From the NCBI GenBank assembly GCA_016213555.1, contig JACRAC010000008.1, positions 1 through 45,641 of the forward strand: a stretch of 45,641 nt of DNA, written 5' to 3'. Below the pieces are notes generated by a model. That model searched no databases, was not told the origin of the DNA, and worked only from the letters and a program-made list of their open reading frames with translations. The DNA is from Candidatus Aenigmatarchaeota archaeon. Its GTDB lineage: Archaea > Aenigmatarchaeota > Aenigmatarchaeia > GW2011-AR5 > JACRAC01. The translations under genes and the position numbers were made by a program. Of this stretch, positions 517 to 17,939 are shown one piece after another; position 1 is the stretch's first letter, and every line of letters begins with the position of its first letter.

Positions 517-1800
517 TTAACCAATTGATACTACTTCTGTCATTGAAGTTGTGTTGATTTTATTTTCTCCTATATGTTCAAGTGTTTTATTAAGCCGCTC
601 ATCAACTTTTTCCTTTTCTTCTTCTAATTTGTTTGCTGACTCAGATTTGCTTATGAAAGTTATCTCTAGTTTTGCATTTGTATCTGAATTAATAGATTGT
701 TTTAGAGTTTCTAGTTTTGTCTTTTCTGATACTGTCATATTTCCTCTATTTTTTTCAGATATACTCCCATCTTTTATGGTCAATTCTATTCTTAGATCTC
801 CATCTTGTCTAAGCTGTATTTCTTCTATCAGAATATTCATGTCATCTCTTGTTTCTGAAGATATATTTCCTTCCATTTTCACATTTAATTTATCTGTTAC
901 CTTCTCTATCTTTTGATTTATCGTTTCTATATGTTTTTCTACAATTTCATTTGTTTTTTCTATAAGTTTCTCTAAGTTTTCTTCAGATTTTTGCTTCTGT
1001 TCTAATGTTGTATTTTTAATTTCTGTCAGTTTTTCTACCTTTTCTGTATTATTCTCCAATTTTGCTTTTTCTATTTCAGACTCTATCTTGTCTATTTTAT
1101 TCTCAAATCTGTTCTCAACTCTTTGGTACATACTCAGTTTTATCTTTTCTTGTAGTCTTTGTTCTATTTCTATATCTCTTTTAGTTGCATTGATGTTTTT
1201 ATTTATTGTCTTTTCTTCTACCTGTTTTTTAATTACTTCATTTAATCTTTCTTTTGATGTTTCAGGTAGTTTATCTTTTACTAATTCAAGAACCATAATA
1301 CTTTTCTGCAATACACGGTCTGTTTCATTCATTAGGGTTGATATATCTTTTCCCATTTTCCTAAGATCTTCTTTTCTCTCTTCTACATTTTTTATTTGAT
1401 CTTCATGTTCTTGTAAAGCCTTTTCTGCTAATTTATCTTCTCTTTTTTCTAATAAAGCCTTTGCTTCTGCAAGTCTCTTTTTTGCAAGATCTAGATGTAT
1501 TTTTGCATTGTTCATATTTTCAAATGCAAAGAAAAGTGATAAATCTTCTCCAAATCTTTTGAATCCATAAAATGGATGATCTGGTAATAATCCAGGATCA
1601 TTAAACTCCTCTTCAACGGATTGTATTTCAGCTTCTGTTACTGAACTGTCTTCGAAGTTTATGTTTGCTGATTGGTCTCCAATTACTTGTGCTTCAGCTA
1701 CTCCTTCTATATGTGATTCTCCTGTTCCATGTGCAAATGCTGCCAATGATAGTATCATTATAATAGACATGATGAATATGGAACTTATTTGTGTTTTCAT
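517..1800 (-). CDS. secreted coiled-coil protein, DUF5667-like N-terminal region
   Basis: N-terminal signal/TM segment (IFIMSIIMILSLAAFA). Motif PDHPFYGFKRFGEDLSLFF followed by a long K/E-rich heptad-like sequence. Strong GGTGG SD before the ATG. Confidence 0.6.
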   Translation of the reverse strand: MKTQISSIFIMSIIMILSLAAFAHGTGESHIEGVAEAQVIGDQSANINFEDSSVTEAEIQSVEEEFNDPGLLPDHPFYGFKRFGEDLSLFFAFENMNNAKIHLDLAKKRLAEAKALLEKREDKLAEKALQEHEDQIKNVEERKEDLRKMGKDISTLMNETDRVLQKSIMVLELVKDKLPETSKERLNEVIKKQVEEKTINKNINATKRDIEIEQRLQEKIKLSMYQRVENRFENKIDKIESEIEKAKLENNTEKVEKLTEIKNTTLEQKQKSEENLEKLIEKTNEIVEKHIETINQKIEKVTDKLNVKMEGNISSETRDDMNILIEEIQLRQDGDLRIELTIKDGSISEKNRGNMTVSEKTKLETLKQSINSDTNAKLEITFISKSESANKLEEEKEKVDERLNKTLEHIGENKINTTSMTEVVSIG

Positions 1801-1937
1801 TTTTTCCCACCTTTTTTATATCTTGTTAAATAAATAGAGAAAAGAAGTTTATGGAGAAGACGATTTATCTCTTTCCCCTTGGGGTGCGAAGGGTTATCAC
1901 ACAACTACTAACATGGTTCACAATTTTCTAAACTTCT

Positions 1938-1966
1938 TTTCTCTTAATTAATATATGTATGTTTCA
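1938..1966 (-). promoter_or_regulatory. conserved upstream block (TATA-like), copy 1
   Basis: tttctcttaattaatatatgtatgtttca. The 21-nt core aattaatatatgtatgtttca is identical to 4007-4027. Confidence 0.45.
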
Positions 1967-1982
1967 TACACATATAGTACTG

Positions 1983-2004
1983 TTGAAACAATTTTGAAAC
2001 AATT
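1983..2004. repeat. tandem 11-nt direct repeat TTGAAACAATT x2
   Basis: Exact tandem duplication, 17 nt distal to the conserved block and 15 nt from the stop of the wHTH regulator gene. Confidence 0.6.
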
Positions 2005-2018
2005 AAAATTAATAGATA

Positions 2019-2864
2019 TTATTTTTTGTAAAGTATTTTATTTGTTCTGCCTTTCTTTCTTTTTTCTATAAGTCCTTTTGCTTCGAATTTTTGAGATATT
2101 CTTGTCATTTTTGCACGTGAGAATTTGAATTCTTGCTCTATCTTATTTTGATATACTATAGGATTCTTTTCTAAATATTCTATAACCTTCTTTTCATCTT
2201 CACTAAACCCTTTCATAAAATCTTCTTTTGATCTTTTCTTTAATTTTATGTATACAATTAACATAACTATTATTAGAGATATTATTATTGGGATGTATAT
2301 GTTGAATCCTTTATTAAGAGGCTCAAATTTTACCGTTACTGATTCCATTGATTTATTATTGAATGACCAGTCGATGTATATTCTTCTACCATCGCTTCTT
2401 ACTTCTCCATTTTCTGGAAAATAAGAATTGTCTGCTATTCCAGATCCTTCAGGTATAGCTAATGTTATCAACATTCTTTCTGTATTTTGTTCTGTTGACA
2501 CCTCAGTAAAAAATAAACTTTTCTCACCTAATTGAAATATAAGATTTTTTGTTTTGAATTTTATAGATATTGTTTTAATAAAAGTGCTATCTATGGGGCT
2601 TATTTTTGTAGATGAATCAAATTTTTCTGTATTAAAGTTTAGTTTGTTTTCATCCCCATTTACTACAATGTTTTCAATATCTCCGTTAAAATAATAAGTT
2701 AGGTTTGACGCTAATACATTTTCTTTGAATGTTGCATCTATTGTTTCAGTTACATAAAAATCGTTTCCAATATCGAAATTTATTTTATATTCTGATATAT
2801 CTACAGCTGTAACTATGCTAGAAATAGCTGCTAAAACAAATAATACTACAAGTAGTCTTTTCAT
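2019..2864 (-). CDS. membrane-tethered winged-helix transcriptional regulator with extracytoplasmic N-terminal domain
   Basis: Signal peptide, about 190-aa exported domain, one TM (IYIPIIISLIIVMLIVYI). Cytoplasmic MarR/TrmB-like wHTH tail (SEDEKKVIEYLEKNP...KMTRISQKFEAKGLIEKRKKGRTN). Confidence 0.6.
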   Translation of the reverse strand: MKRLLVVLFVLAAISSIVTAVDISEYKINFDIGNDFYVTETIDATFKENVLASNLTYYFNGDIENIVVNGDENKLNFNTEKFDSSTKISPIDSTFIKTISIKFKTKNLIFQLGEKSLFFTEVSTEQNTERMLITLAIPEGSGIADNSYFPENGEVRSDGRRIYIDWSFNNKSMESVTVKFEPLNKGFNIYIPIIISLIIVMLIVYIKLKKRSKEDFMKGFSEDEKKVIEYLEKNPIVYQNKIEQEFKFSRAKMTRISQKFEAKGLIEKRKKGRTNKILYKK

Positions 2865-2955
2865 TTAATCACTAAGTAAGTATTGATCTTATTCTATAAA
2901 TATACTTCTAGATAGTTTTATATAAATAAAGGTTAAGAAAAGAAAAAAATTCTAC

Positions 2956-3972
2956 CTAGCCTACATTAATTTCTACATTTCCTTGACTTTCGACTCCTGT
3001 GTCTGTTGAACTATCTATACCAACACTGGCTGATCCAGAAGTGCCCAAACTACTAGAGACACCATTGTTAAAAGATACTTCACCTGAACTTTCTGAACTA
3101 CTTGAACTTTCTCCAGTTGATGTGTCTGTCTCAACTTCTGTTTTGGATTTTGCGCCTAAACCAATGCCTAAATTTGTTGTTAGATCAATGTTTGTATCTA
3201 GGGTTATTGATATAATAGTCCCTGTATTTGAATCTATTTTTACTTTAGCCATTTTTGTTAGTGTGTATCCACCTTTTGCTTCTACATCACTTGCTGTAAC
3301 AACAAAGAAAGTTGATCCACTTTCTGTTACAGTTTCAACGTTATTTACTTTAAATCCAAGTTTTTCCTTTACAAGTTCGGCTGCTTCATCTGCTGTTAGT
3401 TTACCTTCTTCTGTGTCAGATGTCAGAAGAGATAATCCTGTATGCCCTCTTACTGGTACATTTAATCCAGCTGAAATTCCTGAATTTTCTATAACACGAA
3501 CTGTGGTTTTAGCTTTTTCTTCAAGTGCTGTATCTCCATTGGCTTTTGCGTCTAATTCTATATTTTTAATTTCACTAGTCAGTCTAGTATGCTCTTTTAC
3601 AATTGCTTCATGTTCTGATTGTATAGAGCTTATTATATTTTCTTTCTCTTCTACTGACTTAGTGTTTAGTTCTGAAAGAGCTTCAGATTTTACATCTAGC
3701 CATGCTTGCTGACGTTCTTTCATTTCTAAATTTCTCTCTTTCAACAGATCTAACTTAGCACTTTCATCAAAAGTCAGTGCACTTCTTGTATTATACACAA
3801 AATCTCCAAATCCTTGACCTATTTGTTTAAATTTCAGATCTAGAGATGATAGTGTTTCTACAGATGCTTTTGTGGTTGATTGTGTGCCTATTTGTTGTGC
3901 AAATGCAAAAGGCATTGATAATACTACAATGCCCAATACAAGCGCTGTAATAAGCTTTTTCATATATCTCAC
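2956..3972 (-). CDS. secreted protein, distant paralog of 517..1800, with Ser/Thr/Gly-rich C-terminus
   Basis: Signal peptide (LVLGIVVLSMPFAFA). DUF5667-like segment FGDFVYNTRSALTFDESAKLDLLKERNLEM, then a coiled coil. Shares its promoter block with 517..1800. Confidence 0.55.
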   Translation of the reverse strand: MRYMKKLITALVLGIVVLSMPFAFAQQIGTQSTTKASVETLSSLDLKFKQIGQGFGDFVYNTRSALTFDESAKLDLLKERNLEMKERQQAWLDVKSEALSELNTKSVEEKENIISSIQSEHEAIVKEHTRLTSEIKNIELDAKANGDTALEEKAKTTVRVIENSGISAGLNVPVRGHTGLSLLTSDTEEGKLTADEAAELVKEKLGFKVNNVETVTESGSTFFVVTASDVEAKGGYTLTKMAKVKIDSNTGTIISITLDTNIDLTTNLGIGLGAKSKTEVETDTSTGESSSSSESSGEVSFNNGVSSSLGTSGSASVGIDSSTDTGVESQGNVEINVG

Positions 3973-4111: not shown

Positions 4112-4477
4112 ATGATAAAATACAAACATGCTTTAGATGTACAGTCTAAAATTACTGATTTATCCAAGAAATTGGAAATGGAACATATTGATAATAGAGT
4201 TGTTTGTATAAGGAGTAATGGATCTGCATCCAAACGTACAATAGCTAGATGTCATTCACTACCAAGAATAATGAAATTTGCTCTTGGAACAGAAACACAT
4301 TATGTTATTGAGGTAATATCTGAACAATACGATAAACTAAATGAGGAAGAACAGCTTAAAACTCTAATACATGAACTTATGCATATTCCTAAATCTTTTG
4401 GTGGTGGGTTTAGATTCCATGGTTATGTTAATGAGGGTAATGTAAACGTCCTTTATAGAAAGTATAAAGCTAGTTAG
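4112..4477 (+). CDS. predicted small zinc metallopeptidase (HExxH)
   Basis: HELMHIPKSFGGGFRFH motif in a 121-aa protein. Resembles the small archaeal predicted-metallopeptidase family. Confidence 0.5.
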   Translation: MIKYKHALDVQSKITDLSKKLEMEHIDNRVVCIRSNGSASKRTIARCHSLPRIMKFALGTETHYVIEVISEQYDKLNEEEQLKTLIHELMHIPKSFGGGFRFHGYVNEGNVNVLYRKYKAS

Positions 4478-4522: not shown

Positions 4523-5272
4523 TTATAATTTCTGTCTTTCAAATTCATCTAACTTACGTTTGGCTGATTTTAACCATTTTGATGACTTTTGTTTTCTAAT
4601 TGCAAAGCTATCTGCGTATTTCTCTTCTTTATAAGAGTCATAGTGAAATCTTGCTAATAGAGAAAATGGAGTGAAGAATTTCAATATAGATATAGATGAT
4701 GTTAATAAGGAGGCTTTTCTTTTGATATGTCCAAGCTCATGAAGTATTACAGCTTCTACTTCTCTCTTTTTTAATATATCTAACAAGCCTGCTGATAAAA
4801 ATATGCCTGATTTAAATGATCTGAATGAAAATGCTAAAGGGTTGGCTGTATTTACAGTATATATTTCAGGCTTTGTTATCTTTAATCTTTTTGATTGGTT
4901 TTCTACAAACTTGTTTATTTGTATGTTTTCTAAAACACTTTTCTTATAATATACTATATATATTCCTGGAATTACAAACAAGCTAATTACTGTACCTATT
5001 ATCAATGTAGTAGGCAAAGATAATGCTATCAAAGAATACATATTGTTATAACAAGGCATACATCCAGTTCCACATAATACATTTGTTGTGAATAAGACTA
5101 TTGGAAATAAAATTGCTATAATATGTCCATATATAAGAGCTACCTTTGATTTTGTTGACAAATTAAATTTCTTTAATGGGATAAAAGTTGCAACAGCTAT
5201 TATTAGTGAAAATCCCATTAAAATTAATTTGTCTGATTCTAATGGTATCCCAGCCAAACATCCTATTATCAT
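4523..5272 (-). CDS. BlaR1/M48-M56-like membrane metalloprotease (sensor/anti-repressor type)
   Basis: Multi-TM N-terminus and an HELGH zinc motif (AVILHELGHIKRK). Sits immediately downstream of the BlaI-family gene. Cys cluster CGTGCMPC at a TM boundary. Confidence 0.65.
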   Translation of the reverse strand: MIIGCLAGIPLESDKLILMGFSLIIAVATFIPLKKFNLSTKSKVALIYGHIIAILFPIVLFTTNVLCGTGCMPCYNNMYSLIALSLPTTLIIGTVISLFVIPGIYIVYYKKSVLENIQINKFVENQSKRLKITKPEIYTVNTANPLAFSFRSFKSGIFLSAGLLDILKKREVEAVILHELGHIKRKASLLTSSISILKFFTPFSLLARFHYDSYKEEKYADSFAIRKQKSSKWLKSAKRKLDEFERQKL

Positions 5273-5280
5273 TTACACAC

Positions 5281-5658
5281 CTATTGAGCTTTTTTGAATC
5301 TTTTATTAAAATAATTGACAGCAGTAGGTCCAAAAGTGTTTATTAGTTTATTTACAGTGCTATCTATTACAGTTTCTTCAAACTCTTCTTTTGAGGATTT
5401 TGTAGAATAAATATAATGTCCTCCACCTCTACCCTTTTCAATTTCTCTATCTACAATTCCTTTTTGGTGAAGTCTATCAAGAATAACAGCTACGCTTGTC
5501 AGAGCTACTTTTCTATCTTTTTTAAGAATATTATGAAGATCTTTTACCTTTGCCTGATCTTTTTTCCATAATAAATCTAATGTCTCGGATTCTAAAGGAC
5601 TTAGTAGAGAATTCATACCTTTTTTATTGAACCTTATCTTTTCTACTTTAACCATCAC
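5281..5658 (-). CDS. BlaI/MecI/CopY-family winged-helix repressor
   Basis: LSPLESETLDLLWKKDQAKVKDLHNIL...TSVAVILDRLHQKGIVDRE matches the penicillinase-repressor fold pattern. 125 aa. Confidence 0.75.
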   Translation of the reverse strand: MMVKVEKIRFNKKGMNSLLSPLESETLDLLWKKDQAKVKDLHNILKKDRKVALTSVAVILDRLHQKGIVDREIEKGRGGGHYIYSTKSSKEEFEETVIDSTVNKLINTFGPTAVNYFNKRFKKAQ

Positions 5659-5694
5659 ACCACTTCTTATCTTTTGTTTTATATGCTATATATA

Positions 5695-5712
5695 TTTGTA
5701 AAGCTTTACAAA
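5695..5712. promoter_or_regulatory. perfect 18-nt palindrome TTTGTAAAGCTTTACAAA (candidate BlaI-family operator)
   Basis: Lies 37-54 nt upstream of the repressor start, directly distal to a TATA-like run. TGTA/TACA half-sites are typical of BlaI/CopY operators. Confidence 0.5.
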
Positions 5713-5843
5713 AATAGTAAACTATATATACTAGTTAATGCAAATTACTATAAATTTATAAATCTTTTAATTAGAATATTTCAAATATTAAAAATTTTGG
5801 GTTTTGTGGGTATAAAAGTTTTGTAATTTAATAAGGGATAATT

Positions 5844-6521
5844 ATGTCTGAAGAAAATATTCATACTTCTAAAAAAAACGCTGGCTTGTTTGAACTTATT
5901 TATAAGAATAATATAGTTTTGATATCTTTGATTGTGTTGATAACATTGATTTTTGTTAATCAGTTTATACTAATGACGTCTTTTGCAACAGCATCTATCT
6001 CCAATGTTAATTCAGTAAGTTTATCAGATGCTGATTTATACAAGGCAAAAGGAACTATACAGTCTATTGCACTTCTCTACCCTGTTAGGGAGATAAAAAT
6101 AGACTCAGATGCTATAAAGATGATGATACCAAAAGGAACTCCTGATTATGGAGAGAAAATGGGAGTCTCTTTTGATGATTCTAAGTCATTAGATAAAATG
6201 GCTAAAGCTTATAGTGCTATCAAAGCAGAACTACAAAAAGATCCTGAAAAATGGAAAAGATATTTGAATTTAGCTACAAAACCTGTTGGTATTTCATGTG
6301 AATTCTGTTGTGGCGTTGGTCCTATAGGAATAACCTCTAATGGAGATATTGCTTGTGGTTGCTCACATAATGTAGCTCTTCAAACATTGACTATGTGGCT
6401 TATGAAAAATACAGATTATACTGATGCTCAAATAACAAAAGAAGCTATGAAATGGAAATCTCTTTGGTTTCCAAAAAATATGGTGCAGCTGGCTAAAAAA
6501 GCAGCAGATGCTTTGAATTAA
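5844..6521 (+). CDS. membrane-anchored exported protein with CEFCCG...CGC motif
   Basis: Single N-terminal TM (IVLISLIVLITLIFV). C-terminal domain contains GISCEFCCGVGPIGITSNGDIACGCSHN. No family recognised. Confidence 0.55.
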   Translation: MSEENIHTSKKNAGLFELIYKNNIVLISLIVLITLIFVNQFILMTSFATASISNVNSVSLSDADLYKAKGTIQSIALLYPVREIKIDSDAIKMMIPKGTPDYGEKMGVSFDDSKSLDKMAKAYSAIKAELQKDPEKWKRYLNLATKPVGISCEFCCGVGPIGITSNGDIACGCSHNVALQTLTMWLMKNTDYTDAQITKEAMKWKSLWFPKNMVQLAKKAADALN

Positions 6522-6531
6522 TGGTGATAAA

Positions 6532-6744
6532 ATGGAAAAGAAAGAACTGCTAGTAGTAGTAATGATAGGGGTTCTTTTGCTTGTAACAGCAATGCAAACA
6601 GTGACTCTAGCGGGAATGGTTACAGCAGGACCAGCTCCTGTAAAAGCAGTAACATCTTCAAACTCTCAGTCCAGTTCATCTGGTTCAGGAAGTTCAGATG
6701 TTTCAAGTTTAGATAGTCTGCCTAGCATGGTAGGGGGCTGCTGA
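6532..6744 (+). CDS. small membrane-anchored/secreted Ser-rich peptide ending in MVGGC
   Basis: 70 aa: KKE plus a hydrophobic helix, a Ser/Gly-rich linker, then terminal LPSMVGGC-stop. Starts 10 nt after the previous stop. Confidence 0.5.
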   Translation: MEKKELLVVVMIGVLLLVTAMQTVTLAGMVTAGPAPVKAVTSSNSQSSSSGSGSSDVSSLDSLPSMVGGC

Positions 6745-6793
6745 TTTTTATTTTGTTTTAATTTTACATTATATTTTTATGTGGTGTTTTTAG

Positions 6794-8176
6794 TTGAAAT
6801 TTGATAAATTTGAAATTATTTTGTGTGTATTTGTAGCTGCTGTTATAGTTTTGTCAGCAATAAACTTCTCAATTATATATGGGGCAACCCAAAAGGTTAC
6901 AGAGACACATAAACTAGTAGAAGAATCAAAAATACCTGCAAAAATAGAACTAGTTAAGATACTAGATTCTTCATGCGATAAATGTTTTGATATTAATTCT
7001 GTAGTAAAATCTTTGAAAGATTCTAATGTTAATGTTACATCTGAAAAGGAACTGGACTTTTCTTCAACAGAAGCTCAAAATATTGTTAAAAAATATAATA
7101 TTCTTAAAATACCTACTGTGATAGTAATAGGTCAGATTAATAAAACATCTTCAATATCAGATACAAACTGGGTTAGAGATACTAAGAATAATTTTGCTTA
7201 CTACTCATCTGTTGGAGTTCCTTTTGTCGATGTAAGTACTGGAGAGGTTAAGGGACTTGTTTCTTATACTAATATTGTAGATAGTTCATGCAATAATTGT
7301 TCAAATCTTTCACAAGTCGTTTCATATCTTAAGGAAAATGGAGTAAAGTTCTCGGAAGAGCAAAATGTTGAGTATAACACTGTTGCTGGCCAAACGTTTA
7401 TTGATAGATTTGGTATAAAAGAAGTTCCAGCAATTGTTATTTCATCTGAAGTGTTAGAATACCCTGATATAAAAGACATATGGGACAAATTAAATGCTAC
7501 AGAAAAAGATGGTTATTATGCTTTGCATCCATTATCACCTCCTTACAGAGATCTTTCTACAAATAAAATAGTAGGATTAACAACTGTAGTATATCTAAAA
7601 GATTCTAGTTGTTCTAGTTGTTATGATGTATTTTTGAATAAAGAGATTTTAGAATTAAGCTTAGGAATATTTGTTGAAAATGAAACTACTGTAGATCTAA
7701 ATTCTACACTAGGTAAAGATCTTATAAGTAAATATAACATAACAAAGGTACCTATAATAATAATTTCTCCTGATGCATCTGTTTATAAATCGTTTACAAG
7801 TATTTGGCCTCAGGTTGGTGATACATCTAACGATGGATGGTATGTTATGAGAAATCCAGGACTTTTGGGAACATATAGGGATCTTAAAGAGAATAAAACT
7901 ATAACTCAAGTAACTGTCTATGCTGGAGATGATCAATATCAACCAAAAAATATAACAGTTAATTTTGGAGATACTCTAAGCATAAGATTTGTAAATGCTG
8001 GACAGCTTCCTCATACCTTTGCTATAGATGAACTTGGAGTTAGATCTGGAGTGGTTTCTCCTAAAGGATCTGAAACTATATTTGTCACAGCTAATCAAAC
8101 AGGTAATTTTAGATATTATTCTTACTATAAAGATGATAGAAGAAATGGGTTGGAAGGAGTTCTTACTATAGGTTAA
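6794..8176 (+). CDS. membrane-anchored protein with three thioredoxin-like SSCxxC repeats and a C-terminal degenerate cupredoxin-like domain
   Basis: TTG start preceded by GTGGTG. Repeats hold SSCDKC, SSCNNC and SSCSSC, each followed by K(I/V)PT/A-type Trx strands. The C-terminus (PHTFAIDELGV...GNFRYYSYY...GLEGVLTI) is cupredoxin-like but lacks the Cys ligand. Confidence 0.6.
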   Translation: MKFDKFEIILCVFVAAVIVLSAINFSIIYGATQKVTETHKLVEESKIPAKIELVKILDSSCDKCFDINSVVKSLKDSNVNVTSEKELDFSSTEAQNIVKKYNILKIPTVIVIGQINKTSSISDTNWVRDTKNNFAYYSSVGVPFVDVSTGEVKGLVSYTNIVDSSCNNCSNLSQVVSYLKENGVKFSEEQNVEYNTVAGQTFIDRFGIKEVPAIVISSEVLEYPDIKDIWDKLNATEKDGYYALHPLSPPYRDLSTNKIVGLTTVVYLKDSSCSSCYDVFLNKEILELSLGIFVENETTVDLNSTLGKDLISKYNITKVPIIIISPDASVYKSFTSIWPQVGDTSNDGWYVMRNPGLLGTYRDLKENKTITQVTVYAGDDQYQPKNITVNFGDTLSIRFVNAGQLPHTFAIDELGVRSGVVSPKGSETIFVTANQTGNFRYYSYYKDDRRNGLEGVLTIG

Positions 8177-8182
8177 ATTTCT

Positions 8183-8941
8183 GTGATCTCTATGAAGTTG
8201 AATAAGAATTTGATAATAATATCTATTTTTAGCTTGGTTGTTGCTTCGGTATTTGCATTTGTTCTTTTTTCAAAATCTTCTAATGATGATATATACAAAC
8301 TTAATACAGAAATTCAATTAAGTAGTCCAAATGCTCTCAAAACCATAGGAAATTATTACAAACAATCTAATGAGTCTTATTCGGATAAAGTTACTGTATT
8401 TTTTGTAGGTACTGAATACTGTACATTTTGTGCAGCAGAAAGATGGCCACTTGTAGAGTCATTGAAAAATTTCGGTTCTTTTGAAGGTCTTGGTTCCTTA
8501 ACAACTCCTTCTATAGGTGGGGAATACTCTGATCTACCTACATATACCTTTATTGGAGTAAAATACAATAGCAGTTATCTAAGTTTTAGCAATAAAGAGA
8601 CATATAATAAAAATTATGATGAGTTAGAAAAGCTTACACCACAAGAAGTAAAGATAGTTGATAAATATAATCCATCTGGAGGAGCACCTTTTTTAATGAT
8701 AGCTGGTAAGAAAGGAGTTTATACTCAAGTTAGTTCTGGTTATTCTCCTGCAACATTGTCTGGATTGACATTTTCACAAATTCAAGATAACCTTAAGAAT
8801 AATACTGATACAAAAGAAGTTATGTCTATAAACAAAGAAGCTGATATTATCACAGCTATAATTTGCCACAATAATGATAACCAACCAGAAAATATTTGTA
8901 CTAGGCCATCTATAAAGAGCTTAGTTGAAAAAATTATATAG
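8183..8941 (+). CDS. DUF929-like thioredoxin-fold protein (CxxCAAERW motif)
   Basis: N-terminal TM. FFVGTEYCTFCAAERWPLVESL is the motif I associate with DUF929. Alternative ATG start at 8192. Confidence 0.6.
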   Translation: MISMKLNKNLIIISIFSLVVASVFAFVLFSKSSNDDIYKLNTEIQLSSPNALKTIGNYYKQSNESYSDKVTVFFVGTEYCTFCAAERWPLVESLKNFGSFEGLGSLTTPSIGGEYSDLPTYTFIGVKYNSSYLSFSNKETYNKNYDELEKLTPQEVKIVDKYNPSGGAPFLMIAGKKGVYTQVSSGYSPATLSGLTFSQIQDNLKNNTDTKEVMSINKEADIITAIICHNNDNQPENICTRPSIKSLVEKII

Positions 8942-9001
8942 TCATATGCTAGAAAGAATTTAAAAAATCTTTCTGCAAATAAAAAATTAGAGGGTTTCAA
9001 G

Positions 9002-9511
9002 ATGAAAAAAATTATCTTAATATTGGTCTTTGCTATATTGTTAGCTATACCAGGATTTAGTCATCAATCAGCTAGTGTGAATAATTTGACTATTGAGATA
9101 GATACACAACCTAATGAACCTCCTATCGCTGGAGACACATCTATAATAACCTTTGATGTAACAAAAGCAGACGGAGAGCATCCTAATCATACTGATATTT
9201 ACTTTAATTTAACTAAAGATGGCAAGCTGATAGTAACTAACTATTATATACACAGTCATTTAGGTACTCCATCTTATGCACAATATTTTGAATCTTCTGG
9301 TATATACAAGATGGATATTCTTATAGAACCATCTGATCATTATGAAGATTCTTATAAATTTGAGCCATTTACAGTAGAATTCAATATTACTGTTAATCCA
9401 AATACTTCTAACCCTAATAGTCAGAATAATTTGGTTATGTATGGTATTCTTATTACTATAGTAATTATAATTTCTTTGATTGTTTTGTTAAGAAAAAAGA
9501 TCTTTAGGTAA
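9002..9511 (+). CDS. exported beta-rich protein with C-terminal TM anchor
   Basis: Signal peptide, His-containing Ig-like region (DGEHPNHTDIYF..HSH) and a C-terminal TM with RKKIFR tail. Confidence 0.45.
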   Translation: MKKIILILVFAILLAIPGFSHQSASVNNLTIEIDTQPNEPPIAGDTSIITFDVTKADGEHPNHTDIYFNLTKDGKLIVTNYYIHSHLGTPSYAQYFESSGIYKMDILIEPSDHYEDSYKFEPFTVEFNITVNPNTSNPNSQNNLVMYGILITIVIIISLIVLLRKKIFR

Positions 9512-9515
9512 TTTT

Positions 9516-10118
9516 ATGGAACATAAATGTGATCAATGTACTAGAACATTTGCTAGTATAGAAGGATTGAGTAGTCATAAGAAAGATAAACATACTGACT
9601 TAGTTGCTAGCAGCGAAGTTTCTAAGTCCAATTGGCATCTGTATGCTGTAATTGCAGTCATAATTCTTATTGTTATAGGATTAGGCGTTTTCTTTTTAAC
9701 ACAACCTAAATCAGATTCTCTGGATGTTATTCCATGTAATAACATGGAACAAAATGGGTTTCATATTCATGCGCATCTTGATATATTTGTTGATGGTCAA
9801 TTATATACAGTTCCTGCTGGTATAGGTATAACAAATACATGTCTTTATTGGCTTCATACTCATGATTACAGTGGAATTATTCATATAGAAGCTCCATCAA
9901 AGAGAACTTTTATGTTAGGACAGTTTCTTGATATATGGAAGAAATCATCTGTTGATTCTACTATGCCTATAGGATCACCTATAGCTTATGTCAATGGTAA
10001 AGATGTTTCTGTAGATTATAGAAATATTGAACTAAATTCTCATGATGAAATCGCGCTTGTTTATGGTAAAGCTCCTAAGGTAGTTCCTTCTTCATATGAT
10101 TTTCCTCCAGGAGAGTGA
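9516..10118 (+). CDS. C2H2 zinc finger - TM - extracytoplasmic His-rich domain protein
   Basis: CDQC-x12-H-x4-H classical C2H2 finger at the N-terminus and one TM (LYAVIAVIILIVIGLGVFFL). C-terminal GFHIHAHLDIFVDG...CLYWLHTHDYSGIIHIE. Confidence 0.6.
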   Translation: MEHKCDQCTRTFASIEGLSSHKKDKHTDLVASSEVSKSNWHLYAVIAVIILIVIGLGVFFLTQPKSDSLDVIPCNNMEQNGFHIHAHLDIFVDGQLYTVPAGIGITNTCLYWLHTHDYSGIIHIEAPSKRTFMLGQFLDIWKKSSVDSTMPIGSPIAYVNGKDVSVDYRNIELNSHDEIALVYGKAPKVVPSSYDFPPGE

Positions 10119-13948: not shown

Positions 13949-14365
13949 TCACCTCACTATTAACTTTCCAGTTCCCATTCCCATTGAACAAGTTACTGGA
14001 AATTCTCCTGCCTTATTTGCAGTGAAAACTATTTTATTATCGTCGTTGCTTAGGTATTTTCTTAAGCTAAGAGATGGGATAAGAAAACTTCTGTAACATC
14101 CCGATATTGTATTCATGTCAGCCACTATAGTAACTTCATCACCAACATTAACAGAAGTTGGGGTAAATTTGTATATATTTCCTGTCATTGACATTTTTAC
14201 TGTTATATTCCCATTCTCAGATGTTTTTATTGGTTGTTTATCTTGATTAATTATAGGTAGTTCTGTTGTATTTTTAGGAGCTGATATTATTGCACTAGCT
14301 GCAACAATAAAAAAAGACACTATAACTACAATTCCTAATATTGCCACCATATTTTTTCTGTCCAT
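13949..14365 (-). CDS. exported cupredoxin-like metal-binding protein
   Basis: N-terminal TM. FTPTSVNVGDEVTI...GEFPVTCSMGMGTGKLIV is typical of Cupredoxin_1 proteins found next to CopA. Confidence 0.65.
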   Translation of the reverse strand: MDRKNMVAILGIVVIVSFFIVAASAIISAPKNTTELPIINQDKQPIKTSENGNITVKMSMTGNIYKFTPTSVNVGDEVTIVADMNTISGCYRSFLIPSLSLRKYLSNDDNKIVFTANKAGEFPVTCSMGMGTGKLIVR

Positions 14366-14458
14366 TTTATCACCTTCTAAGAAGAGGAACCCCGCTTGAT
14401 ATATTCGGTATCTTTTCGTTTATCTCTTCTACAGTATACCTCTCCTTTATAGTTTTTA

Positions 14459-16645
14459 TTATAATTTTCTGAATTTTAATAGTATTGAGTTTGACACAAC
14501 TGATACTGAGCTAAGAGCCATTGCACCGCCTGCTATTACAGGACTTAATAGTATACCTGTTGATGTATATAGTACGCCCGCTGCTATAGGAATTCCTACT
14601 ATATTATATATCATAGCCCAAAACATGTTTTGTTTTATTTTGTTAAGAGTCATTCTGCTTAGTCTAAGAGCTCTTACAACATCTGTAGTGTTGTTTTTCA
14701 TTAGTATTATACCGCCAGTTTCTACTGCAACATCTGTTCCAGATCCCATAGCTATTCCTACATCTGCCTGAGCCAGAGCAGGAGCATCGTTTATTCCATC
14801 TCCTACCATTGCTACGATAAATTTTTTCTGTAATTTTTTCACATATGCAGCTTTTTGATTTGGTAGAACTTCAAAAAATACATTTTCTATACCTACTTTT
14901 TTTGCAATAGCTTTTGCTGTTCTTTCATTGTCTCCTGTTATCATATAGACTTGTATTTTTTGTTTTTTCAAAAGTTCTATAGCTTCTATTGAACTTTCTC
15001 TTATCACATCTGCAACAGCTAACAATCCAATAACTTTCTTATTTTCTGCAACTATCATTACTGTTTTTCCTTCATTTTCCATTTCTTTTATAGCATCTAT
15101 TTGATTTACTTTTATTTTTTCATCTTTCATTAATTTTATGTTTCCTATAGTTATTTTATTTGAACCTATTTTTCCCTGTACCCCATGACCTATTATTGCT
15201 TTAAACACTGAAACATCTTTCAAAGATATTTTTCTTTCTTTTGACTTTAGTATAATAGCTTCTGCAAGAGGATGTTCTGATTTATTTTCTATGCTAGCAG
15301 CTATCTGCAACAGGTATTTTTCATCTACGTCATATGTTTCAATATCTGTAACTTTTGGGTTACCTTCTGTTATTGTTCCTGTTTTATCAAAAACAACACA
15401 GTTTACTTTGCTTGCTGTTTCAAGGACTTCTCCATTTCTTATCAATATTCCATTTTGTGCAGCTTTTCCAGTACCTACCATTATTGCAGTTGGAGTTGCA
15501 AGACCAAGTGCACAAGGACATGCTATTACTATGACTGCTACGCCTACTATAAGTGCAAAAGAAAATGTAGCTCCTAATACAAAATACCATAGTAAAAATG
15601 TAGCTAATGATATTGACACAACTGCAGGAACAAAATATGCTGATATTTGGTCAGCAAATCTTTGTATTGGAGCCCGTGACCCTTGAGCATCTTCAACCAT
15701 TCTGATAATTTGCGATAATGTTGTATCTGAGCCTACTCTTGTTGCTTTGAATGTAAATGATCCATGCTTGTTTATTGTTGCACCTGTTACTGTATCTCCT
15801 TTATGTTTTTCAATAGGCATGCTTTCTCCTGTTATCATTGACTCGTCTATTGTAGAATAACCTGATATTATTATGCCATCAACTGGTATTTTTTCTCCAG
15901 GTTTTACTATAATTTGATCTCCTATTCTTACGTCATCTATTTGTATTGTAATCTCCTTACCTTTTCTTATTACTCTTGCCTTTTTAGGTGATAACTTAAT
16001 TAAAGAGCTTATTGCTTCGCTAGCTCTCCCTTTTGCAAGAGCTTCAAGATATTTTCCAAGTATTACTAGAGTTATCAAAACTGCAGATACTTCAAAATAT
16101 AATTCTGCCATTGGATTTGTTAGCATGTTGTATATACTGAAGAAATATGCTACTGATGTACCTATAGCTATTAGGGTATCCATGTTAGCTGTCTTATTTC
16201 TTAATGCAAGAAACATACCTCTATAAAAGTAATATCCTATTCCAAACTGGACTGGTGTAGATAATATAAGAAGTATGTATTCTTTTCCTGGAAGATGCAT
16301 GAAAAACATGCTTATTACTAGTGTAGGAATGCTTAGCGCAGCGCTTGCTAAAAGAAGCATTCTCATTTTAGAAAGCTCTTTAGCTCTTTCTATTTTATCA
16401 CGATCTATATCTGCTACGTCTATAGGAGAAGCAGTGTACCCTAAATTCTCTATTATTTTAACAATATTTTCTTCTGTTATAATACTAGATTCATACTCTA
16501 TCTTAGCTTTTTCTGATGAGAAGTTTACATTTGAATATTTTATTCCCTTTGTTTTGTTAAGTTTTTTCGTTATGTTATTTGCACAACTAACACAATGCAT
16601 TCCTTTGATAGATAGATTAGCTTTTTTTATTTCTTCCTTTTTCAT
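14459..16645 (-). CDS. copA: copper-translocating P1B-type ATPase
   Basis: HMA domain [13 protein letters not shown] motif ([11 protein letters not shown]), DKTGTIT and [10 protein letters not shown]. Confidence 0.92.
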
Positions 16646-16649
16646 ATGA

Positions 16650-17366
16650 TCACACTATAGTTACTGTGAGAATTGATTTTGGACCCCATACCATTATTGC
16701 TGTTAAAATTATTGCGAACATAAACATAGCGCTTAGATAGATGGCCATATCATATTTATCGTATTTTGCTAAATTTTCTCTATGCTCCTCGTGTTCTTTG
16801 TATACCATATAGCTCATTCCAGCCAGTGTGGTTGAGCATATTCCTATCAAAATAGGCATAAAGAGTAGTATATTATCACTGATAAGCATCACTGATATCA
16901 TTGCACCCATTGTTCCTGACATCAATCCAGCCATCATGCTTTCAAGTGTTGACATTATTCCACAGGTTCTTGTACACCATACACCTATTCCTATTCCAGT
17001 AGATAATCCTACTAAACTTCCTATAAACATTCCGTTTGTTGCTCCTACAATTGCACCCATCATAAATCCTGACATCATTCCTACAGTCATTCCAATCATC
17101 ATTCCTGTAGAGCATGAGAAGTATTTTCTATAATGTTTTATATGCCATACTGCAGATCCTATGAATACAGTAGAAATTATTATGTAAATCATGAATTGAA
17201 TTAATACTACATTAAAGTGCTTTATGAAAGCAAAGAAAAACATAATTTCTGCTATTGATAGTATGATGAAGGCTATTATCGCTAGGAGGATCATATTTTT
17301 TTCTGCTTTTAGTAATTTTATTTTTGTTTCAGTCTTAATATTTTGATCTGTCAATATATTCACCAA
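16650..17366 (-). CDS. Met/Gly-rich polytopic membrane protein
   Basis: About 7 TM helices with [16 protein letters not shown] and [17 protein letters not shown] tracts. 4 nt upstream of copA. Confidence 0.55.
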
Positions 17367-17399
17367 TCTAATGTTAATAGTTTATAAGAAATAGGATAT

Positions 17400-17430
17400 A
17401 AACAATTGTATGAAACTGGTTTCATTGTTT
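17400..17430. promoter_or_regulatory. inverted AAACAAT / ATGAAAC motifs between regulator and Met-rich membrane gene
   Basis: aaacaattgtATGAAACtgGTTTCATtgttt. Confidence 0.4.
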
Positions 17431-17438
17431 TATAACGG

Positions 17439-17939
17439 TTACTTACTTTTTAATATAACAATATTACTCATGCCATGCCTTTTTCTTTCAACTAATCCTT
17501 GTATCTCCATTTTATCTAGGAGTCTGCTTACTTTTACTTTATTCATTCCTGATTTTGTAACAAGCTCTCCTTGTAGGATAGATCCTTCAGAATTTGATAT
17601 AATCTCATATATTTTCTTTGTTTCCTGACTAAGGTATTTTGGTTTAGGATAATATTTTTTAATTATAATTTCTTTTACAGTTTCCTTACTTTTAATATTA
17701 TTTATTAAAAGTATTCCTAGTCCTACAAATAATAGAATTACAGCAGAACCTAGAATGATTGTAAAATTAATATTACTTTGATCATGTAGGCATGTACTAC
17801 CTATGTAACAACTTCCTGTTTCATTCATTAGTTCTGTTGCTAAATTATCAGAATTAATTTTATTATATAAAGAGAAGAGTCCTAAGCCTAAAGATACTAT
17901 TATGAGAAAAATTCCTATATATTTTAACATTTTTTGCAT
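17439..17939 (-). CDS. membrane-tethered winged-helix regulator (small paralog type of 2019..2864)
   Basis: Two TMs flank a Cys-containing loop (GSCYIGSTCLH). C-terminal wHTH SQETKKIYEII...VSRLLDKMEIQGLVERKRHG. Confidence 0.6.
   Translation of the reverse strand: MQKMLKYIGIFLIIVSLGLGLFSLYNKINSDNLATELMNETGSCYIGSTCLHDQSNINFTIILGSAVILLFVGLGILLINNIKSKETVKEIIIKKYYPKPKYLSQETKKIYEIISNSEGSILQGELVTKSGMNKVKVSRLLDKMEIQGLVERKRHGMSNIVILKSK

Follow-up and report, generated by a model that had tools for sequence, protein, structure and literature searches.

What might a run of six genes for membrane-anchored proteins bearing cysteine and histidine motifs do at the surface of an archaeal cell? The genes in question, P1 to P6 below, lie in a stretch of 45,641 nucleotides of contig JACRAC010000008.1 (assembly GCA_016213555.1) from a Candidatus Aenigmatarchaeota archaeon; the whole stretch is referred to here as the window. 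An earlier note on this DNA had proposed that the six genes form a self-contained, undescribed module for oxidative folding or for copper and thiol handling in the cell envelope. The copper/thiol envelope theme and the novelty of the components have held up on closer analysis; the idea of a self-contained set has failed, and oxidative folding is not supported. At the level of the system, this is a CcdA/thioredoxin-type envelope thiol system, together with two seemingly undescribed protein families. P1, P2 and P3 form a conserved gene core, found in genomes that are labelled nearly all as DPANN-type. Judged from sequence and gene context, the locus may be an inducible, membrane-tethered, outward-facing thiol-handling module that copes with copper, a metal that reacts with thiols, and with the damage it does to them, a reading to which we give a probability of roughly 45%. 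The six genes are as follows.

5844..6521, plus strand: P1, a transmembrane (TM) anchor and a helical ectodomain with the motif CEFCCG…CGC.H
6532..6744, plus strand: P2, 70 residues, with a TM anchor, a Ser-rich linker and the C-terminal motif LPSMVGGC
6794..8176, plus strand: P3, anchored by a TM segment, with three thioredoxin-fold modules and, at the C-terminus, a cupredoxin-like domain
8183..8941, plus strand: P4, a membrane-anchored DUF929 protein of the thioredoxin clan, with CTFC
9002..9511, plus strand: P5, with a signal peptide, an ectodomain rich in His and a TM segment at the C-terminus
9516..10118, plus strand: P6, in which a TM segment joins a cytoplasmic C2H2 finger to a beta-grasp-like extracytoplasmic domain

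Translation of the open reading frames confirmed six genes on the same strand, and the cysteine and histidine motifs that had been noted in them are all readable: SCEFCCGVGP...ACGCSHN, LPSMVGGC, SSCDKC/SSCNNC/SSCSSC, CTFCAAERW and HIHAH...HTHD. From P1 to P6 the intergenic gaps are, in order, 10, 49, 6, 60 and 4 nucleotides, and about 31% of the bases in the window are G or C. By a hydropathy scan, every one of the six products has a single hydrophobic segment at its N-terminus, and P5 has a further TM segment at its C-terminus. Counts of Lys and Arg before and after the first TM segment (2.7 and 0.9 in the P1 family, 3.4 and 1.6 in the P3 family, 5.2 and 0.65 in the P6 family) favour an N-in/C-out orientation. 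By the same hydropathy and charge evidence the domains are predicted to be extracytoplasmic, in agreement with the original description of the products as exported or membrane-anchored.

Related genomes show which of the six genes belong together. A scan using one genome per species found P1 in 143 species; 80 loci were fetched, with 1.06 Mb of flanking DNA in total, and a well-flanked set was defined as the 43 loci in which P1 has 3 kb or more of DNA on either side. In this set, P2 is near P1 in 39 loci, P3 in 38, a CcdA/DsbD_TM protein in 36, a P6-like or C2H2-TM protein in about 20, a membrane MarR/DUF7343 regulator in 10, BlaI in 8 and BlaR in 7. The order was the same when every neighbour within 6 kb of P1 was clustered without bias. 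The expectation that the six genes would be found together elsewhere is therefore borne out in part: P1-P2-P3 co-occur across the 143 species, and P4 (DUF929) and P5 stand beside P1 in the window and, beyond it, in just two relatives, the loci numbered L091 and L092. The six-gene set thus consists of the core P1-P2-P3, a frequent accessory (P6), and the lineage-specific P4, P5 and cupredoxin part of P3.

The same comparison speaks against a self-contained module. CcdA/DsbD_TM proteins accompany the core in most well-flanked loci, and some variants of the cluster also include DsbA-like proteins, DsbB, glutaredoxin or a polytopic membrane protein with the motif GCPTCG. The earlier note was correct that the window itself holds no recognisable component of this kind: neither tblastn nor hidden Markov model searches found CcdA or DsbB anywhere in its 45.6 kb, neither DsbB nor VKOR is present, and the BlaR-like protease and CopA described below are its only polytopic membrane proteins with a CxxC motif. 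Because CcdA adjoins the core in 36 of the 43 related loci and is missing here, the window is a reduced, derived version: CcdA and the tail of P1 have been lost, and DUF929, P5 and the ligand-poor cupredoxin part of P3 are additions. Locus L095, in which a BlaR-BlaI pair lies across from P1-P2-P3-CcdA-DsbA-like-C2H2 protein, looks like the full form of the arrangement. In L091 and L092, a polytopic protein of 163 residues with the motif CPICQG, absent from the window, is encoded between P5 and P6. A related membrane domain, with the motif GCP[TS]CG, occurs elsewhere as an N-terminal fusion to P1. This GCP[TS]CG/CPICQG domain has no Pfam match and occurs fused or stand-alone in L048, L050, L005:14512-15021, L091:14176-14667 and L092:10688-11179; the L050 locus, which carries the fusion, is without CcdA. 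The domain is a candidate for a new transmembrane thiol relay. DoxX is another neighbour, present within 6 kb of P1 in 11 loci and in 14 over the full loci (e.g., L037:862-1308), and encoded divergently upstream in 6.

P1 and P2 appear to be two undescribed protein families with a common, undescribed C-terminal motif. The 268 P1 homologues are 45-60% identical and none has a Pfam domain. A profile search over 1.84 billion cluster representatives returned just 280 family members, which shows the P1 family to be compact, and the genomes of these relatives are labelled almost all as Woese-, Pace-, Nano-, Micr-, Aenigm- or Iainarchaeota, which makes the source of the window a DPANN-type archaeon. 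In the family alignment, C152, E153, C155, C156, G157, C171, G172, C173 and H175 are invariant. Neither P1 nor P2 matches a Pfam or NCBIfam model, and a scan of 71 P1 relatives against Pfam at E <= 1 gave no consistent family and no cofactor-binding family. Sequence and profile searches of the Protein Data Bank (PDB) with P1 gave no match. The AlphaFold2 model of a P1 homologue (P0006), with a mean confidence score (pLDDT) of 87 and mostly above 90 in the ectodomain, is all-helical; the cysteine cluster lies in a loop or hairpin leading into a helix, and the tail is disordered, with pLDDT below 50 for the last residues. Compared with the PDB by Foldseek, this model has a best match of E 2.9 and a TM-score of about 0.15. 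The supposition that the block contains undescribed components is upheld for P1 and P2. A literature search found nothing relevant on the MVGGC or CEFCCG motifs or on CcdA/disulfide systems of DPANN archaea. An assignment of P1 to the PCYCGC family (PF13798) was rejected, since P1 gave no match at E <= 0.1 and none of the 71 members gave one at E <= 1. PCYCGC proteins are likewise Cys-rich and exported and have a CxCGC-type motif, and one is encoded in an operon with a P1-P2 pair in L096; however, the order and spacing of their motif differ from those of P1.

The motif that P1 and P2 have in common is found at the C-terminus. Most P1 homologues end in LPGMVGGC, a tail like that of the separate P2 of the window, and about 225 of 251 motif-bearing P1 members end in ..G[GS]C. 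Altogether, 167 open reading frames in 85 loci end in GGC, nearly all of them in LPxMVGGC, and in nearly every locus a tailed P1 is followed directly by a peptide of 65-90 residues with the same tail. In these P2-type peptides, a linker rich in Ser, Thr and Gly joins the tail to a TM anchor that bears a Q-x-x-Q motif. The window P1 is a rare tail-less variant: only 3 of the 251 members, namely this one and its two nearest relatives (L091, L092), end in ADALN. The idea that it lost its tail through an assembly or frameshift artefact was rejected, since the ADALN end occurs in two independent relatives and the gap between P1 and P2 is 10 nucleotides. At the other end of the protein, the cytoplasmic N-terminus is rich in His or Cys (HHEHHEHHEH or MDCCDSKHSSHSHS, for example) in 28 of 251 P1 relatives.

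In P3, Thioredoxin_3, Thioredoxin_8 and Glutaredoxin (modules 1 and 2) and Cupredoxin_1 all match above their Pfam cut-offs, and the modules are homologous to one another, module 3 to modules 1 and 2 (z = 16-24 against shuffled sequences). The earlier note had asked whether the CxxC cysteines are conserved. Among 60 homologues the three pairs C61/C64, C166/C169 and C273/C276 are 98-100% conserved, and the cis-prolines P107, P212 and P320 are 100% conserved. A CxxC pair, a cis-proline about 45 residues downstream and a profile match together identify P3 as a thioredoxin-fold protein. Its tandem thioredoxin-fold units, each with its own CxxC, resemble those of PDO and PDI; what sets it apart is that three units are active, that the chain is anchored in the membrane at its N-terminus and that it is predicted to be extracellular, and the NCBIfam PDO model matches it weakly (31.6 bits against a cut-off of 185). 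P3 homologues are typically about 380 residues long and are without the cupredoxin part, which in the window protein scores 41.3 bits against a cut-off of 27.

P4 was correctly recognised as a DUF929 protein. The Pfam family (PF06053) matches with E 5.7e-22 and 78.8 bits against a cut-off of 24.6, over profile positions 1-204 of 205, and the CTFC motif is present; searches of the PDB by sequence and profile gave no match. DUF929 has been placed in the thioredoxin clan (PMC3091736), and DUF929 proteins were detected in the secretome of Picrophilus, an archaeon (PMC8345856).

The two His-rich proteins at the end of the block differ widely in distribution. P5 has only two homologues, both within the syntenic clusters of L091 and L092, and in the three sequences H21, H60, H63, H84, H86 and H113 are invariant. 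Read by eye, the likely signal-peptide cleavage site falls between GFS and HQS, which places a histidine right after it. P5 has no Pfam, NCBIfam or PDB profile match, and its identification as a YcnI/CopC-like histidine-brace copper protein was dropped for want of such support. P6 has 1493 homologues, including many from ammonia-oxidising Nitrososphaeria. Invariant in the family are C74, E78, H83, H85, H87, D89, C109, H114, H116, H123 and E125, and the cluster of histidine and acidic residues among them suggests a metal site. The N-terminal finger has the C2H2 spacing C5-x2-C8-x12-H21-x4-H26; its Pfam match falls just below the cut-off (21 against 25 bits), 33 of 57 family members do match, and Foldseek aligns it with the fingers of BCL11A and CTCF (probability 1.0, root-mean-square deviation 0.5 Å). 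In the AlphaFold2 model of P6 (pLDDT 89), the zinc finger is followed by a TM helix and a beta-grasp-like ectodomain. Foldseek relates the ectodomain weakly to MoaD, SAMP1, Urm1 and ThiS, at E 0.1-0.7 with none at or below 0.001; a weak ThiS Pfam match occurs in 21 of 57 family members (best E 0.005), and sequence and profile searches of the PDB found only the zinc-finger part. Given its predicted cytoplasmic finger, one possibility is that P6 is a membrane-tethered regulator. Proteins that join such a finger through one TM segment to an ectodomain are widespread in archaea, and in DPANN the ectodomain can also be thioredoxin-like (L003:7436-7891); proteins built in this way may be membrane-tethered one-component regulators.

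Upstream of P1, and divergent from it, lies a putative switch.

4523..5272, minus strand: BlaR1-like M56/M48 membrane metalloprotease (Pfam Peptidase_M48 and Peptidase_M56)
5281..5658, minus strand: BlaI/CopY-family winged-helix repressor (Pfam Penicillinase_R)
5691..5716, no strand: candidate operator palindrome in the divergent intergenic region

The protease matches both Pfam families above their cut-offs and has a conserved HExxH motif (H178/E179/H182). As in BlaR1/BlaI (MecR1/MecI), an M56 zinc protease with HExxH thus adjoins a Penicillinase_R repressor, and palindromic candidate operators of the TGTA/TACA type are present. The likeness is incomplete. The window protease, of 249 residues, has three TM segments and ends after its cytoplasmic protease domain, so that the fourth TM segment and the C-terminal extracellular penicillin-binding sensor of BlaR1 are missing; the NCBIfam blaR1 model matches over positions 118-219 of 585 only. 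The sole candidate for a sensor is a pair of cysteines, C67 and C74, which are 100% conserved among 16 homologues and lie in the TM2-TM3 loop, predicted to be extracytoplasmic by the positive-inside rule. The genes presumably controlled also differ, being those of thiol/metal proteins rather than a beta-lactamase. The repressor (125 residues, Penicillinase_R E 2e-15) has no cysteine; the CopY/TcrY model of NCBIfam scores 35.8 bits against a cut-off of 122, and the BlaI model is likewise below its cut-off.

An inverted-repeat search of the divergent intergenic region found a perfect 18-bp palindrome of the form TGTA-N6-TACA, with halves TTTGTAAAG and CTTTACAAA, which is a candidate operator. 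The sequence TGTAAAGCTTTACA is found also upstream of blaI in L092, near-identical sites occur in L091, L023 and L035, and TACA-N5-TGTA is found upstream of blaI in 11 of 20 loci. No CopY-type TACAnnTGTA box lies in the intergenic region; three lie elsewhere in the window, not above chance. A scan for sigma-70 promoters and terminators gave nothing above shuffled sequence, with a model that is uninformative for an archaeon.

The BlaI/BlaR1-like flank of the block is a recurrent one, seen beside P1 in 8 of the 43 well-flanked loci and in L091, L092 and L095, which are among the loci with a BlaR-like gene divergently upstream of P1; BlaI homologues adjoining P1 clusters number 18. In many loci it is a different membrane-linked regulator that adjoins P1. 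Over 81 loci, the regulators beside P1 comprise 14-17 of the BlaR/BlaI type, 16 of the membrane MarR/DUF7343 type and 11 of the DUF835 helix-turn-helix type; the last, membrane regulators that join DUF835 to a winged helix, are encoded directly upstream of P1 (e.g., L075:1465-3201). Next to the BlaR-like gene, at 4112-4477 on the plus strand, is a small gene for a PhageMetallopep/SprT-like metallopeptidase (E 6e-21); L091 and L092 have it in that position too, and it may be part of the regulatory unit. Beyond it, at 517-3972 on the minus strand, are genes for three large proteins (427, 281 and 338 residues) predicted to be exported or membrane-anchored, which in contrast to the adjoining Cys-rich cluster contain no cysteine.

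The connection with copper comes from gene context, and it is here that the proposed copper/thiol theme finds its backing, in operons that combine P1-P2 with CopA, CopG or YHS proteins. A co-directional block in L089 encodes a DsbA-like protein, a membrane MarR, P1-like and P2-like proteins, Cys-rich membrane proteins, a YHS protein, a copper P-type ATPase and a P6 homologue. The P1 homologue of this block is distant (tblastn E 4.6e-6 to the window P1; phmmer matches to 43 family members), and the P6 homologue, 51% identical, follows directly after the pair of YHS protein and copper P-type ATPase. The order in L093 is membrane MarR, P1 homologue, P2-like peptide, DUF411/CopG, membrane proteins, DUF302 and HMA-CopA. 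In L096:8001-10648, an operon holds a distant P1-P2 pair, a membrane MarR, an MCPFC membrane protein and the PCYCGC protein mentioned above; its P2-like peptide has a Cys-rich N-terminus (MDCCNTKEKGDCC) and the tail GQVGSCS. Overall, a CopA-type ATPase is encoded within 12 kb of P1 in 13 of the 80 fetched loci. The window, too, has such a neighbour. What looks like a copper-efflux operon (13949-17939, minus strand) lies 7.9 kb from the cluster and encodes a cupredoxin-like protein of 138 residues (with Cys and Met but no His ligands), a CopA-type P1B ATPase of 728 residues with the motifs GMHCVSCA and CPC, a Met-rich protein of 238 residues with eight TM segments, and a membrane MarR/DUF7343 regulator of 166 residues with the outer Cys pair GSCYIGSTC. 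Synteny of this operon extends to L092, and membrane MarR regulators with such an outer pair of cysteines are found both here and, in other genomes, directly upstream of P1. Two features of the proteins themselves point to copper as well: the His- or Cys-rich N-termini of some P1 relatives and the cupredoxin-like domain to which the window P3 is fused.

These observations can be assembled into a working model of how the locus might protect the cell surface against copper. Copper or thiol oxidation would be sensed by the outer-loop Cys pair of the BlaR1-like protease, which would then cleave the BlaI-like repressor bound at the TGTA-N6-TACA palindrome and so turn on the six genes. P3, as a reductase-isomerase of the PDI/TlpA/ScsD type, would together with P4 keep exposed cysteines reduced or correctly paired. 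The CxxCC...CxC.H centre of P1 would bind Cu(I) or another thiophilic ligand. In P2, and in most genomes in P1 itself, the flexible Met/Cys tail (LPxMVGGC-COOH) would serve as a swinging arm that captures the ligand or passes it on, so that P1 and P2 would bind or relay either Cu(I) or mixed disulfides. The His-rich ectodomains of P5 and P6 may be lineage-specific metal-binding accessories.

Several observations weigh against this assignment to copper defence. P1 is without detectable kinship to any copper protein, and a zinc knuckle with a structural role or a group of disulfide bonds would explain its Cys pattern equally well. Distant variants of the tail, LGGCG and VGSCS, have no Met. The repressor was rejected as a CopY-type copper sensor, since it has no Cys and hence no CxCx4CxC motif. 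Comparison by eye with the cupredoxin encoded nearby at 13949-14365 shows that the C-terminal domain of P3 has kept a single type-1 copper ligand out of four (the H of LPHTF) and is missing the Cys, Met and second His; by this reading a cupredoxin fold is present and a blue-copper site is absent. No CopA was found in the DNA retrieved for about 85% of P1 loci. If about one CopA is assumed for each genome of about 1 Mb, CopA would be about 10-fold enriched near P1, an estimate that depends on this assumption. The membrane topology on which the outward orientation depends is a simple hydropathy and positive-inside calculation made with no dedicated predictor, and the lack of CcdA in the window leaves the P3 encoded there without its usual neighbour as a source of reducing power.

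The strongest competing explanation, which we nevertheless consider unlikely, is a general envelope pathway of disulfide isomerisation or reduction, of the DsbD-DsbC/G type, that maintains exported proteins under oxidative stress with no specificity for copper and in which P1 and P2 would be dedicated clients or adaptors. This is consistent with CcdA and P3 being the commonest partners of P1 and with the clusters that contain glutaredoxin, DsbB, DsbA-like proteins, FeThRed_B, a pyridine-nucleotide disulfide oxidoreductase or DoxX, and the Cys pairs of the regulators could sense redox state. However, such a pathway leaves unexplained why P1-P2 are found in CopA/CopG/YHS operons without P3 and CcdA and why some P1 proteins have His- or Cys-rich N-termini, and the other exported proteins of the window have no cysteines to maintain.

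It is improbable that P1 is instead a catalyst of de novo disulfide formation, an analogue of DsbB, VKOR, Erv or Ero1 whose Cys arm shuttles disulfides to P3, P4 and substrates. Erv2 and Ero1 combine a helical bundle with a shuttle arm, and the P1 model, with its all-helical ectodomain, Cys cluster and flexible terminal Cys, recalls this logic; the window, moreover, has no DsbB or VKOR of its own. Nonetheless, Foldseek finds no likeness between the P1 model and any PDB chain, sulfhydryl oxidases included, and CcdA, the conserved partner, supplies electrons and does not remove them, which led us to drop an Erv/Ero1-like oxidase as a candidate. The Pfam scan of the 71 relatives detected no cofactor-binding family, no plausible electron acceptor was identified, and the window P1 has no arm. 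With a reductive partner and a P1 model unlike known disulfide-generating enzymes, oxidative folding, one of the two functions first suggested for the block, becomes less likely.

Still less probable is that LPxMVGGC-COOH is a signal for C-terminal processing or lipid attachment, which would leave P1 and P2 doubly anchored and in a structural role. The terminal V-G-G-C resembles a lipobox, and the motif is strictly C-terminal, extremely conserved and common to two otherwise different proteins. A bacterial-type Lgt (PF01790, E 1e-78) is also encoded 2.5-6 kb from P1 in 8-9 loci (L064:4644-5414, L041, L066, L073, L024, L065, L057, L068). But the motif comprises the last eight residues, after a polar Ser/Thr/Gly-rich linker, with no hydrophobic segment after it or directly before it, unlike the signals of lipoproteins, sortases and archaeosortases, and for this reason such a signal was rejected. 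Lipidation of the tail by Lgt was dropped as well, since Lgt is loosely linked, never within the operon, variable in orientation and absent from the window. The window P1 works without a tail, and the thiol/metal gene context would have no explanation.

Least probable is that the species handled is Hg(II), As(III), Zn(II) or a persulfide or polysulfide rather than copper: a vicinal CC pair like that of P1 is a classic ligand set for Hg and As, and some clusters include MerT/HMA-like membrane proteins with a CC motif or ArsP_1 permeases, but no MerA or ArsC-type reductase is among the annotated neighbour genes, and the recurrent transporters are of the CopA type, with YHS, CopG and cupredoxin partners.

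The copper-and-thiol function favoured here has parallels in bacteria. The Scs proteins of Salmonella and Caulobacter are encoded by a copper-induced envelope operon and comprise the DsbD-like ScsB, ScsC, the membrane-anchored ScsD and ScsA, whose fold is not known; they link copper tolerance to thiol repair (PMC10907172). In a second system, electrons pass from CcdA or DsbD to TlpA and on to ScoI and CoxB, and the reductase that serves the Cys/His copper site there has a thioredoxin fold (PMC6669012). In both Scs and TlpA-ScoI, membrane-anchored thioredoxins that are supplied by a DsbD/CcdA transporter keep Cys-based copper proteins, and other exposed thiols, reduced (PMC10907172, PMC6669012). 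Like the archaeal clusters, Scs brings together an electron transporter in the membrane, proteins of the thioredoxin fold, one of which is anchored in the membrane, and a small protein with CxxC and no known fold. This likeness is one of function and architecture only: P1-P6 gave no match at E <= 0.1 to the NCBIfam models named for Scs, and P1 and P2 have no evident homology, in sequence or structure, to ScsA, ScsB or ScsC. In contrast to Scs, a single P3 chain carries three thioredoxin modules; the transporter is of the CcdA type and absent from the window; control falls to BlaR/BlaI, membrane MarR or DUF835 regulators rather than to CpxRA; and the archaeal host has no periplasm bounded by an outer membrane. 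The comparison with TlpA-ScoI also has its limits. P1 is all-helical, whereas Sco proteins have the thioredoxin fold, it carries CxxCC...CxC.H in place of the Cx3CP...H of Sco, no cytochrome oxidase target is evident, and the bacterial pathway has no counterpart of the C-terminal Cys arm and the P2 peptide.

A bolder and more doubtful proposal concerns the arms themselves. P1 and P2 might represent a new class of tethered extracytoplasmic proteins with a free C-terminal Cys arm, paired in P1 with a new helical fold, which together with P3 and CcdA (or the GCPTCG domain) would form a DPANN-wide surface relay for Cu(I) or for thiol-disulfide exchange. Neither bacteria nor archaea are known to have a mechanism in which Cu(I) or thiol/disulfide equivalents are relayed along tethered arms.

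DPANN archaea, which rely on contact with host cells, have very small genomes, and the biochemistry of their surface is almost unknown. This cluster has been kept in at least 143 species, usually under a membrane-linked regulator, and it contains two unannotated families with a common conserved C-terminal Cys motif, one of which has a fold absent from the PDB. If the proposed role in handling copper and thiols is correct, this would be the first described envelope system for copper defence or thiol maintenance that is specific to DPANN. A BlaR1-like protease with no penicillin sensor and with an outer Cys pair would extend the logic of BlaR/BlaI beyond antibiotics, and tethered arms with a single Cys would be a new answer to the problem that bacteria solve with Scs, DsbC/G and TlpA-Sco.

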